Assembly (NCBI RefSeq): GCF_003018115.1
Contig: NZ_CP027457.1
DNA: 64,000 nucleotides
Origin: Escherichia coli
GTDB lineage: Bacteria; Pseudomonadota; Gammaproteobacteria; Enterobacterales; Enterobacteriaceae
Strand: one strand, 5' to 3'
A program made the position numbers. This document shows positions 33,001 to 39,000 of this stretch, piece by piece. Every line of letters begins with the position of its first letter. Position 1 is the first letter of the stretch.

Positions 33001-36000
33001 CAGCTATGGCCAGCAGGGCGAACCTGCCACCACCACATTCCGGATTAATGCACCGGCGGCACCGGCCAGCATTGAACTGACGCCGGGCTATTTTCAGATA
33101 ACGGTGGTCCCGCATCCTGCGGTGTATGACCCGACGGTACAGTATGAATTCTGGTTCTCAGAAAAACGCATCACGGACACGGCACAGGTGGAAACCTCAG
33201 CCCGTTATCTGGGTACCGACAGCCAGTGGAGCGTCTCCGGCCCGCACATTAAGCCGGGGAAGGATTTCTGGTTTTATGTGCGCAGCGTCAACCTGGTGGG
33301 GAAATCTGCGTTTGTGGAGGCCAGCGGGCAGGCCAGCAATGATGGTGAAGGGTATCTGGAAATTTTCCGTGGGCTGATAGATGAGGCGCTGCTGGGGAAG
33401 GCACTGAAAGAGCGTATTGATGCGTCAGCCCTGCGTACTGAGGTCACGCAACTGGAAGAAGACATCCGCCAGCGGCTGGAGACGGATGTTGCGGAAGTGA
33501 CCCGAAAAATAGGGGAGGCGGAAAACAGCCTCACGCAGCTGGTTGCGAAAAAGAATGAGGACCAGACGCTGGCCATCGCGCAGGTGAGTCAGCAGGTGGA
33601 CCGGGTGAGCAGTGAAATCACACAGACAGTCAGCCAGAGCACGGAGGAAAACGCCAGGCAGATAGCGCAGGTCCGCCAGTACGTGGATGACAAAGGGAGT
33701 GAAATCACCTCGACCACGGATAAAAAGCTGGAAGACCAGAGCGCGACCATACAGCAGATACAGCAGGTCCAGTCAGACACGAATGATGAGCTGGCAGCGC
33801 TGTACATGCTGAAGGTGCAGAAAACGAAAAACGGCATTCCGTATGTTGCCGGTATTGGTGCGGGGATTGAGGATGCTGATGGCCGGACGCTGAGCAATAT
33901 TCTGCTGCAGGCGGACCGTATCGCGATGATTACCCCGGAGAACGGCAACACCACGCCGCTGTTTGTGGCGCAGGGGAACCAGCTGTTCATGAACGACGTG
34001 TTCCTGAAGCGACTGTTTGCGGTGAGTATCACGTCATCCGGCAATCCCCCGACGTTCTCCCTGACGCCGGAGGGCAGGCTGACAGCCCGCAATGCGGATA
34101 TCAGCGGAGCTGTTACAGCGAATTCTGGCACGCTCAATAATGTCACCATTAACGAGAACTGTGTCATCAGAGGGAAACTGTCTGCGAACCAGATTGAAGG
34201 CGATCTGGTGAAGACGGTGGGGAAAGCCTTTCCCCGGAATAACAGTTATGCCCGTGGCACGATAACCGTCACGGTTTACGATGACCAGGGCTTCGACCGG
34301 CAGATTATCATTCCACCGGTGCTGTTTCGTGGGACGAAACACCAGAACGTCAACAGCCCGAATCAGCAGTCGTACTGGTATTCAACCTGTAAGCTGCAGG
34401 TGCTGAAAAACGGGGCAGAGATTTTTCATGAACCGGCAACGGATGTCAGCCGGGTGTTCTCATCGGTGATTGACATGCCAGCAGGACGGGGTCATGTCAC
34501 CCTGACGTTTAATGTGTCGTCTACCGGCGCGAACAACTGGACACCGACGACGTACATCAGTGATTTACTGGTTGTGGTGATGAAAAAATCCACGGCGGGA
34601 ATCAGTATCAGCTGACGGTTTATTAACCCGGACGGGCACCCGAAGTGGTGCCTTTTTTATTGACTGAAAACAAAGAGGTAATCATGCGGTATTTATACGG
34701 AGCCATTTTATTTTTTACTACCCTGCCGGCAGTAATGACTTTTCCTGCACAGGCTGCAGGCGGACACGGTGCATTTTCCGTGGGATATGCTCAGGTTCAC
34801 CCGGGCGGCGTGCCGGTATTGTCCGGTACCGGTGCCCGTACAGGTGATTTAAAAGGGATCAACGTGAAATACCGTTATGAATTCACGGACCATCTGGGCG
34901 GCATAGCCTCGCTGAGTTACGCCTCTGCGAAAAAGAGCAGAACCACGATGACCGGGGATAAGGCATTTCATTATGAAAGTCTGCGTGGCCGTTATGTGAG
35001 CCTGATGGCGGGGCCGGTCTGGCAGGTCAGTGAGCAGCTCAGCCTTTATGGCATGGCCGGGATGGCGCACACCCGCTGGTCTGACAGTGTTCAGGATTAC
35101 CGGCGTGATGAAGTGACACCGGGGGATGTCAGGGTGACCACCACTGCCAGTGATGGCCATTCTGCACGTCATCTGACGCTGGCATGGGGGGCAGGGCTTC
35201 AGTTTAATCCGGCGGATACGGTGGCGGTTGATCTTGCGTACGAAGTGGCCGGTCATGGTGACTGGCGAACGGATGCGTTTATTGTTGGGATTGGATACCG
35301 TTTCTGACGGCAGATACAGCTTTATCTTCTGTAAATATTGGTATAATGAGCATGTTCATCACACCTTATGGGGTGAACTGCGTCTGAGGAAACGTAAAGT
35401 TACACTGTCCTGAAGCCCGTGGCATTACTGCTGCGGGCTTTTTTATTGGTGGAAAGGTATGACGGTTAAAATTTCTGGTGTGCTGAAGGACGGGGCCGGT
35501 AAGCCGGTACCGGGATGCACGATAGAGCTGAAAGCGCGACGCACAACGGAGACGGTGATTGTCACCACGGTGGCGTATGGTCAGCCGGGGGAAACCGGCA
35601 GTTACAGTATGGATGTTGAGCCGGGTCTGTACCGGGTGACGCTGAACACGGAAGGGTACGCGCCGTCATATGTGGGTGACATTCTGGTGAAGGCGGAGTC
35701 TGCACCGGGAACGCTGAATAAATTTCTGATGGACCAGGAGGACGCACAGTATTACCCGAAAGCCCTTGCAGAGCTGGAAGCGGTGGCCGCGGAAATCCTG
35801 AAACGTGCGGAAGCGTCAGCGGCGAGTGCAGAGGAAGCGAAGAAACGGGCAGAGAATGCGCGGGGACCGAAGGGGGATAAGGGAGACACCGGGCCACAGG
35901 GTATTCCCGGGCCAAAAGGCGATACCGGCGAGCGTGGGCCAAAGGGTGAGCGTGGTGAGGCAGGCCCACAGGGGGTACAGGGGCCACGGGGTGAAACCGG

Positions 36001-39000
36001 ACCCGTGGGACCGCAAGGAGAGGCGGGTATTCAGGGGCCTGCTGGTCCTGCGGGCCCGCGAGGTGAAACCGGAGCCAGAGGCGAAAAAGTAGAGCCGGGA
36101 GATCCCGGAGGACCTCCGGGACCAAAAGGTGACACTGGCCCCAGAGGGGAGCCGGGGCCTCAGGGCCCGGCAGGTCCGAGGGGACCTGCCGGAGAGAGAG
36201 GGCCGCAAGGATTGCAGGGTGTGGCAGGGGAGAGAGGCGATACAGGTCCGGCTGGTCCACAGGGCGCTACCGGCCCCAGAGGACCACAAGGGGAAAAAGG
36301 GGATAAAGGTGACCCCGGCCCGGCAGGCCCTGCCGGTGAGCGGGGGCCGAAAGGTGATACCGGGCCGACGGGTCCCGCAGGGAAGGATGGCGCAGATTCA
36401 CAGGCGAACAGAGTGCGTATCAGCGAGAAAACAGAAGTCACCTCCAGTACAGTCGTTTTCCCCTCTTTTTATGGCGGTGCGCAGGGGGAAAATGCAGCCC
36501 CTAATGGCGCTGTGATTCTGAATATCAGGACGGCTCCGGTATCACTGACGAACGGCAATTTAGGGGCAGCCAGTGTCACTGCTGTCACTTACGGCTTCCT
36601 TCAGGTTCATGATGGCAGCCAGTGGGTTACGGTGAAACATGAATAACATGATTTTCCCGGGTGCGGAAAGCTTAAACGGGTACCCCGTCCTGAATATTCG
36701 CATGAGGAGAAGAAATGAATCTTAAAAATCTGCAACGTTATACTCCTGAGAAGTCGGATGTTCCGGGGGCAATGTACCTGAAGGCAGAGGATGGCCGTGA
36801 CTGGTATGAAAGCCAGTCGTCATTTAAGGCGGATACGCTGAAGCTGGTTTATGACAGCGAAGGCATAATCACGAGTATCAGTAAGGATGTGTCGATGCTG
36901 TGGCCAGTGGGACAGAGTGTGGTGGAGGTTGAGGATACAGAAGAAAACCGCAAAGCTGATATCTCCGGGCGCTGGAAGTTTGACGGGGAAAAAGTCGTTG
37001 ATACTCTGACCGCGGAGAAAGCGCGCGGGATGAAGGGCGATGAAATAAACGCGTGGCGTAATGCGATGGAGGCGGCGAACTACACGTTTGAGCACAATGG
37101 CCGGAAATGGGACTACGGAAAGTCAACGCAGACGCGCCTTGAGCCATCGGTGGCGGCAGCGAAAGCGGGGAAACTGCCGGAGGCGTTTTTCTGGACGGAT
37201 GCGGAAAACAATGATGTACAGGTGACAGCAGAAGAGCTTATTGCGCTGAGTGAAGCGGCAGAGCAGGCGATGTTCAGCAAAGGGATGGAAATCCACATTC
37301 GCCAGCGCACCATGAAGAAGGACCTGGAATCGCTGAGCAGTGCGGATGAGATCCTGGTATACAGGGTTGGCTGGGCACAGGAATAACAGACAAAAAGATG
37401 GGGGACCATCACCTCCCCCATGAACTGCGTTGATTATGTCATTATTGTGAAGATATACACTATGCCGGGTAAATAGTGCCACGGAAAAGTTAATTCCGGA
37501 AGTGACGGAACTCTCATTTTTCGTGCATCCTGTTGATATGGATGATTTTTCAGATTTTCGGAAGTCCGTATTTTTTCCCAGACATTTTGAAGCGTTTGCT
37601 TAATGAACGTATGTGCAGGCTCTTTATCTACGGCTCTTAAAATTGAGAGTCTATCATTGCTGGAGCCTGTGACAATTACGTCCAGGAAGAACTGCATAAC
37701 CTGGATGATTTACGCTCAATCAGAGAGAGGGCGATTAGCGGCAATCACGCTTGATAAAATTAACCCCAGTGATCATCCGGGGTTTTGCAATCATTAAAAC
37801 CGCATCAACCGTTCTACCAGTTGTTCTTTACGGGCAACGATCCAGTCGTGTTGCTCCAGATAAAAACCGTTCCAGAGTGCATACCATCGCATCGGCGGGG
37901 ATTTTTTCCGTGAATTCGACCTGCCCGTGTTTATCGAGGTGGATCAGTAATGCGTATCCATCATTTTGGGTTGGGGGGGTTTGTGCTGCTGGTGGCTGTT
38001 TTTGGCTGAAATAACAGTCTTCGAGTTTTTCGAACACTTCCCACGCCTGAACGGTTTCCAGCATTTTTGCGTGGCGTGCTGCTCCGCGTTCTGTCCATAG
38101 GGTGAGGGGCGGGCTTTGGGAGATATGGGGTTTTGTGACTTACTTAAAGTAAGTCGCAAATTTTTTAATTCTTCACCCGATGCTTTAAAAAAGTGCTTTC
38201 CTTCGACAAAACGCTCTTTGTTTCTGGTGAAGTTAACCTAGATATTCAGAATTTCGGTGCCATAAAGCTGCACCAAAAGTTCGGTGGTAATAACAGGAAT
38301 CTGGTTATGGGTGAACGGGGAGATGGTTTCAACAGAGATTTGAGTTGTCATAATGACGCCCTCTAGTGGTTTCTAAACTATCACCACCGTAAGGTTCCAA
38401 TCATCGGGTGGTGAGACGCACAGGGTTGGAACTACCGGGAAACCGACCGGCGAGCGTTTCAGCTCCCCCAGGCGCCCCACCATAATTCAGATGTACGCGT
38501 GCATACGACAATAAAAAACACGCTCGCGGTGTATGTCTGTCGCGGTCTCTAACCGGGGTTCCAATCCCGACAACTGATTTTGCGGTTGCGCGGGGAATAT
38601 GGCCCCGGAGGACAAAAACTGTCAATGGGCAAAAATTTTCGTTATCAGGAATGTATAAAATTAATTCAATTGAGCAAAAAATCCTTTCTGCAAAACTAAA
38701 AAAGATTTCAATAAAATCAGACAGTTAAAAACACTAAAAAACGGTATAAAAAAGTACCTCAAAATCCTGTTTTTTCTTTCAGATACAATGCCTTATTGCA
38801 TTTTTTAAAACCTGCCAGTGTGGTACATGGATATCGATACCACCGCCAATTATAAGCTAGGCGGTGCACAGCAACACGATAGCGTACGCCTCGATCCGTG
38901 GGTGTTTATGTTCTCAGCAGGATATCGTTTTTAATTCCGCACAAAAACGACCCCGTAATATACGGGGTCAATAAGGACATGGTATAAAGGGTATTATTTC

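Follow-up and report, generated by a model that had tools for sequence, protein, structure and literature searches.

The DNA analysed here (the window) is a stretch of 64,000 nucleotides (nt) from Escherichia coli contig NZ_CP027457.1. It carries a prophage gene resembling the side tail fibre gene (stf) of phage lambda, and this gene contains a long tract of collagen-like Gly-X-Y triplets, whose structure and length variation among related prophages are the subject of this analysis. A single open reading frame (ORF) of 395 residues spans the tract, and its parts are as follows.

35459-36646, plus strand: stf-like side tail fibre gene, comprising an N-terminal domain, the collagen tract and a C-terminal domain (Pfam PF08400, PF01391 and PF13620; PHROG 366)
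35459-35731, plus strand: collar domain, residues 1-91, homologous to lambda gpStfN, which anchors the fibre at the tail tip
35732-35863, plus strand: Ala/Glu/Lys-rich segment, residues 92-135, the end of the PF08400 domain, leading into the tract and far shorter than the PCoil of EPclA (~116 residues)
35864-36088, plus strand: collagen block 1, 25 unbroken Gly-X-Y triplets (28 in relatives, which carry Gly at residue 211)
36089-36109, plus strand: seven-residue break V-E-P-G-D-P-G, made up of Gly211Val and a conserved one-residue register shift
36110-36397, plus strand: collagen block 2, 32 triplets, the block that varies in length among alleles
36398-36643, plus strand: C-terminal domain of 82 residues, without a family match

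The N-terminal part of the protein matched the Pfam family 'prophage tail fibre N-terminal' (PF08400) over residues 1-134 (E = 8.7e-42; 142.8 bits against a cut-off of 26.6), the whole protein matched PHROG 366, 'tail fiber protein' (E = 2e-113), and its relatives are labelled 'prophage tail fiber N-terminal domain-containing protein' in RefSeq. In a phmmer search, residues 1-91 matched the 'Tail fiber protein' of PDB entries 9e7m_Ta/9mgh (E = 2.6e-28). Phage Ur-lambda has four side fibres, each a trimer of gpStf, which are anchored by collar residues 1-91 and speed adsorption via OmpC (PMC12617516). For the PF08400 domain (PfN) of related proteins, a helix was predicted over the last ~30 residues (Ghosh et al., 2012; PMC3368898).

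The Gly-X-Y tract occupies residues 136-313 (178 residues, nt 35864-36397) and contains 57 perfect triplets, arranged as 25 + 32, to which the Pfam Collagen family (PF01391) was assigned at E = 7.1e-28. Shuffling the residues of the protein 2000 times gave Gly-X-Y runs of at most 8 triplets, compared with the 25 and 32 observed, and all six frames of the 64-kb window were free of any further run of at least 5 triplets. The tract is far beyond what chance would produce. Proline is found at X in 28 of the 57 triplets and Y is usually K, R, Q, T or A. The tract keeps the Gly periodicity of a collagen helix with two exceptions, a Val at residue 211 and a one-residue register shift. At the DNA level the tract has a G+C content of 69%, stop codons are scarce in every frame, and usage of the four Gly codons is near even (16/16/14/13). 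A preliminary description of this DNA had placed about 55 consecutive triplets at 35870-36390 and regarded them as a collagen-like stalk in the side tail fibre. A collagen tract in a side tail fibre agrees with the PF01391, PF08400 and PHROG 366 matches, and the stalk is a reading by homology with EPclA (see below); the bounds were slightly off, and although the count was close, the triplets are not consecutive, as a seven-residue break splits them.

The register shift, G-D-P-G-G-P-P-G at residues 214-221, occurs in each of the seven aligned full-length relatives, where the sequence amounts to 59 triplets and an additional residue, and in a further relative, L010. Six residues upstream of it, the window has T rather than G at 36090, so that codon 36089-36091 reads GTA and Gly211 is replaced by Val, which widens the discontinuity. 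A 101-nt query covering 36040-36140 found 98 of 5,426 complete E. coli genomes, 48 of them at 99.0% identity or above and none at 100%, and Gly211Val is therefore private to the window. An exact look-up of the window protein and two relatives in a protein collection returned zero matches, a result that is uninformative on whether Val211 is real. The substitution destroys a K-G-E triplet adjoining the conserved interruption. Around interruptions both K-G-E and K-G-D are enriched, an effect that is greatest in collagen-like proteins of viruses (PMC11923368), and an interruption motif has already been described in the collagen domains of the prophage collagen-like proteins (EPcl) of enterohaemorrhagic E. 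coli (PMC3368898). The conserved register shift is likely a hinge, and Gly211Val may be a sequencing error, a tolerated widening of this existing hinge, or early decay. Gly-to-Val is one of the more destabilising substitutions in collagen and belongs to the kind of substitution behind human collagen disease.

To compare tract length among relatives, we searched the same 5,426 genomes with the gene by megablast, counting a copy as full-length when at least 80% of the gene was covered. Matches were found in 188 genomes (median 2, maximum 6 matching places per genome), and one copy covering at least 80% was present in 56 genomes at 96-99.7% identity. By record span versus query span, 15 of the 56 copies had the same length as the window, 40 were longer by 81 nt (9 triplets) and 1 by 18 nt (2 triplets), two record pairs among them looking like one assembly deposited twice. 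The alleles that were aligned have 59, 61 and 68 triplets, and draft genomes add alleles of 313, 335 and 344 residues with the same N- and C-termini and 32, 39 and 42 triplets; a partial sequence in the protein database has 39 triplets in a single run. Repeat number across related prophages, the comparison proposed in the preliminary description, is thus not invariant, as both the 15/40/1 split and the draft alleles attest. Block 1 is constant in length over eight alleles aligned at the DNA level, the same eight alleles contain no indel (insertion or deletion) outside the tract, and between alleles of different length the flanking DNA (lom, the N- and C-terminal parts of stf and the tail-fibre-assembly (tfa)-like gene) is 99-100% identical; L011, for example, is 100% identical over 989 nt downstream despite the loss of 17 triplets. 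A sister family with the same N-terminus and another C-terminal domain (102 cluster representatives) ranges from 601 to 688 residues, of which nearly all representatives have 451 non-collagen residues. Its first collagen run is fixed at 19 triplets and its second ranges from 31 to 60 triplets with 20 different values. These fibres are thus generally polymorphic in the length of the collagen run nearer the C-terminus.

Within block 2, the alleles differ mainly in two modules and a short tandem unit, which are located in the window as follows.

36164-36244, plus strand: module A, 81 nt (9 triplets), with imperfect repeats of family D4 (spacing 81), GGCCCGGCAGGTCC and GGTCCGGCTGGTCC, as its bounds
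36254-36265, plus strand: repeat GGTCCACAGGGC, which lies directly downstream of module B in relatives, where B is flanked by two copies
36288-36309, plus strand: 9-nt tandem unit AAGGGGAAA in 2.4 copies, encoding GEK-GDK-GD, with an extra copy in L007

Module B, also 81 nt (27 residues), is absent from the window, and its sequence is unrelated to that of module A. The commonest form of block 2 carries both modules, the position of B having been seen in the two +81-nt relatives sequenced here and 40 of the 56 relatives having the +81-nt length. Module A is absent or replaced in L004 and L006. The alleles compared have the following make-up.

Window and L001: module A only
L002 and L005: modules A and B
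L006: module B only, with the length of the window and a different sequence
L004: without module A
L003: module A and part of module B, +18 nt
L007: one extra copy of the 9-nt tandem unit

The deletions that relate these alleles and the shorter ones to each other were mapped at the DNA level.

81-nt deletion, junction GGTCCACAGGG(T/C): loss of module B, giving the window form
81-nt deletion, junction GGTCC inside an 11-nt imperfect repeat: loss of module A
63-nt deletion, junction GGGGAAAAAGG: L003
153-nt deletion (17 triplets), exact junction at the 11-nt repeat GGCCCGGCAGG, found in the window at 36164-36174 and 36317-36327 (spacing 153): P0005/L011
180-nt deletion (20 triplets), exact junction at the 9-nt repeat AAAGGTGAC, found in the window at 36125-36133 and 36305-36313 (spacing 180): P0006/L012
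246-nt deletion, junction GGACC: P0008/L013

All junctions mapped in this way lie on in-register direct repeats of 5-12 nt. Ranked by length among the in-register repeats that the tract of the window itself contains, those used by the 153- and 180-nt events come second and fourth. Deletions within block 2 take out whole triplets (7, 9, 9, 17 and 20). Two deletions that span the interruption (P0007 and P0008) remove it and leave a single unbroken Gly-X-Y run; the one in P0008 comprises 82 residues, i.e. 3n+1. In all, the Gly register is kept or restored in nine of nine indel alleles. Of the tract's 28 in-frame repeats of at least 8 nt, 15 are in register and 13 are not, so random choice of junctions would give this outcome with a probability of (15/28)^9, about 0.004, under a crude model with imperfect ascertainment. 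We read this as evidence of selection for a continuous helix.

The repeats themselves are inconspicuous as DNA. Tandem Repeats Finder, run on 35400-36700, reported only the 9-nt unit at 36288-36309 (2.4 copies), the direct-repeat families in the tract are 60-72% identical, and the longest exact repeat measures 12 nt. Maximal exact direct repeats of 8 nt or more number 30 in the tract, compared with a mean of 4.5 in gene J pieces of the same size; 28 are spaced by multiples of 3 nt and 15 by multiples of 9 nt. Synonymous-codon shuffles gave 27.6 +/- 4.6 repeats, so the DNA neither avoids nor accumulates them and they are a by-product of amino-acid periodicity. The preliminary description had seen repetitive triplet DNA here that could change length by recombination. 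Short repeats do exist, but 'repetitive' was overstated, the tract being only cryptically repetitive and no tandem array; length changes do occur, but microhomologies of 5-12 nt make recombination between long repeats a less likely cause than slippage or illegitimate recombination.

Collagen-like prophage shafts, their interruption and their three-residue length steps were already published in 2012, when Ghosh et al. (PLoS One 7:e37872; PMC3368898) named EPclA-D. The EPcl collagen domains have 27 to 322 residues, and length differences between copies are multiples of three residues (PMC3368898). EPclA is a trimer with a collagen circular dichroism spectrum, a melting temperature of 42 C, a trimerising PfC domain and, by electron microscopy, a rod of ~30 nm for 111 residues; a trimer with a thermally stable triple helix was demonstrated experimentally for both EPclA and EPclB (PMC3368898). 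The window protein shares with the EPcl proteins PfN (PF08400), a (Gly-X-Y)n domain, its place in an E. coli prophage tail module and the conserved interruption. However, EPclA and EPclB have a PCoil region of ~109-116 residues between PfN and collagen and a PfC (PF06820) C-terminus; the window protein, in which the tract starts at residue 136, lacks both and is therefore not EPclA or EPclB. It fits EPclC/D, a loosely defined group with 'different C-terminal regions' and often without PCoil; it has a single collagen domain of 178 residues and a short C-terminus of 82 residues that is undescribed in Ghosh et al. With lambda Stf it shares the collar domain (residues 1-91) and the position of its gene after J and lom and before a tail-fibre-assembly-type gene, and the likeness may extend to a trimeric fibre present in four copies per virion. 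The lambda Stf shaft, in contrast, is a hinged rod without collagen that carries a gp37-like distal domain with PF03406 (Phage_fiber_2) repeats, whereas the window shaft is wholly collagen-like; in the Pfam search PF03406 was absent from the window protein and present in its relatives L009 and L010.

Taken with these comparisons, the tract very probably codes for the shaft of a lambdoid side tail fibre, a collagen-like triple helix, and its alleles very probably change in length by indels at short repeats. Three 395-residue copies would form one fibre, a trimer and triple helix being suggested by the EPclA experiments and the Ur-lambda structure. Residues 1-91 would dock as a collar on the tail tip, followed by a short helical segment, a 178-residue Gly-X-Y rod and the 82-residue distal domain, which the downstream DUF4376/Tfa-like protein probably helps to fold. 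At 0.29 nm per residue the rod is calculated to measure ~51 nm in the window and ~28-59 nm over the allele range of 96-205 residues. The register shift would be a built-in discontinuity of the rod, likely a hinge, widened in the window by Gly211Val. Owing to the codon periodicity of Gly-X-Y, many direct repeats of 5-12 nt would be scattered through the DNA, roughly half being in register, and replication slippage or short-homology deletion between them, both favoured by the simplicity of the junctions, would remove, and occasionally add, whole triplets. In polylysogens, paralogous fibres would contribute further length changes by exchange.

Several observations weigh against this interpretation. 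Modules A and B are unrelated in sequence, so the 81-nt difference is not a simple duplication and could reflect exchange between prophages rather than slippage. Trimerisation, the triple helix and the fibre length of the window protein are carried over from its homologues or calculated, as slippage and any effect on adsorption are surmised, and Gly211Val may locally destabilise the helix. The 82-residue C-terminal domain is presumed to be a trimerisation domain or receptor-binding tip, and this role is a guess. Each of the three shortest alleles comes from one draft assembly, in which assembly error is possible. Among 50,697 sequenced phage records there was no full-length match to the gene, the best match covering its first 524 nt in phage 1720a-02. 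Given Gly211Val and the frameshifted alleles in public data (P0011, with 7 members, and P0064), the window copy may be decaying rather than functional.

The first of these points leads to the strongest alternative, in which the length differences arise mainly by homologous exchange between paralogous collagen fibre genes of co-resident prophages, that is, by mosaic gene conversion. Partners for it are at hand, the number of matching places per genome having a median of 2 and reaching 6, L006 carries B in place of A at unchanged length, and the alternative lom or hok cassettes upstream of the fibre gene also indicate modular exchange. In five relatives (L004, L007, L008, L009 and L010) the same N-terminus and early tract are joined to Gp53-like_C, to Phage_fiber_2 repeats or to a second collagen domain. 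As the switch to the distal part falls within Gly-X-Y sequence, the tract doubles as a splice zone for domain shuffling. The unrelated modules, the B-for-A allele and the C-terminal swaps inside the tract mean that exchange between paralogous fibres occurs too. As the main source of length differences, however, it fits poorly with the 153- and 180-nt deletions and the loss of module B, which are simple events between exact repeats of 9-12 nt, the sequence on either side being identical and no foreign sequence being brought in, and with the +9 change, which is the gain of a tandem unit. We therefore consider exchange as the principal source possible but somewhat improbable; it is compatible with slippage, and the two are not exclusive.

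It is unlikely that the fibre gene is simply a decaying remnant of a cryptic prophage, in which tract length drifts, Gly211Val is tolerated and length variation has no functional meaning. A private substitution at a Gly position, the frameshifted alleles, the ORF6N pseudogene and ompW remnant just downstream and the lack of the full gene in any sequenced phage isolate would all be expected of such a remnant. However, the ORF is intact in 56 complete genomes and the adjoining J, lom and tfa-like genes are intact as well, and the preservation or restoration of the Gly register in all nine indel alleles (about 0.004 if random, under the crude model above) speaks against drift. A different extension of the data, that the C-proximal block is a selected, contingency-like locus for length tuning, appears more doubtful still. 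It supposes that deletions which preserve the register recur at predictable microhomologies and so yield fibres of ~28-59 nm, that selection sorts these by the thickness of the host O-antigen or capsule, that the N-proximal block up to the hinge is held constant for assembly and that Gly211Val is a tolerated or useful widening of the hinge.

That the protein is a bacterial surface or host-interaction factor like streptococcal Scl or Bacillus BclA, and not part of a virion, is very improbable. Other bacteria use collagen-like proteins as adhesins or surface filaments, the tract has a weak match to BclA (1wck_A, E = 3e-5), and Shiga-toxin-type E. coli isolates are the main carriers of the prophage family. 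Against this, the N-terminus is an Stf collar, the gene lies in the tail module between lom and the fibre-assembly-like gene, and the Pfam scan shows no membrane-anchor or secretion-related domain. As an analogue BclA is instructive, as the best-documented case in which triplet number sets the length of a structure: in Bacillus anthracis, according to PMC10470788, which cites Sylvestre et al. (2003, J Bacteriol 185:1555), a strain-specific number of triplets sets filament length. Like the predicted window fibre, BclA is a trimeric collagen-like rod, in its case with a C-terminal trimerising domain; it differs in being a spore surface glycoprotein with much more uniform DNA repeats and unrelated N- and C-terminal domains. 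A staphylococcal phage fibre (6v8i) and a hyaluronoglucosaminidase (6x3m) also gave weak matches. Other phage fibres and the streptococcal prophage hyaluronidase use short Gly-X-Y runs as trimeric connectors; these tracts are much shorter and the host proteins unrelated. Such repeats were reportedly proposed by Smith and co-workers in 1998 as recombination linkers in phage genomes.

Finally, three long ORFs overlap the tract in other frames or on the other strand (35562-36260, minus strand, 232 residues; 35816-36289, minus strand, 157 residues; 36129-36515, plus strand, 128 residues), but that they are real genes is hardly credible, as they are confined to a periodic tract of 69% G+C with few stops in any frame, translate into low-complexity strings rich in Pro, Arg and Gly, are passed over by RefSeq, which annotates the fibre gene only, and have database 'proteins' in their frames (P0011, P0064) that are frameshift products of the fibre gene. 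The overlapping ORFs in 35562-36515 were rejected on both strands as composition artefacts.

To the published picture of these shafts the present comparison adds which block varies, the exact repeats used by deletions, two of which are present in the window, the preservation of register and the private Gly211Val. Retention of the register in every natural variant is an argument that selection for folding acts on the fibre or did so until recently. With side tail fibres, lambdoid phages, among them phages that move virulence genes between E. coli strains, adsorb faster and have a broader host range, and a shaft that readily changes in length would be one more route of fibre diversification. The private Gly211Val is a potential natural test case for a bacterial collagen, and equally it could be a sequencing error or a sign of decay.

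Pfam at E <= 1 gave no family match for the last 88 residues of the fibre, and a protein search with the C-terminal domain alone (83-residue query) returned four E. coli fragments and no full-length protein; homologues were found only in E. coli. By BLASTP, the C-terminus of the phage 1720a-02 fibre shares with it only a local similarity of 21 residues; a short motif, LQV..DGSQW.TV, is common to both. A single-sequence AlphaFold2 model of the C-terminal 100 residues had a mean pLDDT (predicted local distance difference test) of 38 and was unusable.

The fibre gene is flanked by the following genes, giving the order J-lom-stf-tfa-like, as in lambda.

30869-34615, plus strand: J tip-attachment protein gene (Pfam)
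34645-35307, plus strand: Lom (Ail/Lom) outer-membrane protein gene (Pfam)
36715-37386, plus strand: DUF4376/tail-fibre-assembly-like gene (DUF4376, E = 6.5e-17; weak Caudo_TAP; PHROG 11571 and PHROG 136, 'tail fiber assembly protein')

The product of the last gene is presumed to be a fibre chaperone. In the RefSeq locus L001, which is 99.7% identical, these genes are followed by a frameshifted ORF6N pseudogene, a short ompW remnant, yciE, yciF, yciG and trpA of the trp operon (L001 8336-10588), which places the fibre gene in a lambdoid prophage with its insertion site at ompW, near the right end of that prophage; in the window, the right prophage end corresponds to 37400-40100. The slot between J and the fibre gene holds the Ail/Lom gene in the window (34645-35307) and in L001-L003, L011 and L013. 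In L004-L007 and L012, which belong to similar prophages integrated elsewhere, e.g. beside potB, it holds a Hok/Gef toxin gene.

Upstream, the window contains the late region of the same prophage, with Q, a methylase, two tRNAs, cargo genes and the lysis, head and tail genes. Between the tRNAs and the esterase-like gene, none of the ORFs of at least 120 residues is a toxin gene, stx itself not having been searched for directly; these ORFs are a TolA-C-terminal-like gene (4382-4810), an AraC-family regulator (5506-6231) and a 128-residue ORF without a Pfam match (6954-7337). The Q antiterminator lies at 684-1355, tRNA-Met and tRNA-Arg at 3942-4103 and the gene for a sialate-esterase-like protein of 654 residues at 8096-10060. 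The late-region layout at 3942-10060 presumably resembles that of Shiga-toxin phages.

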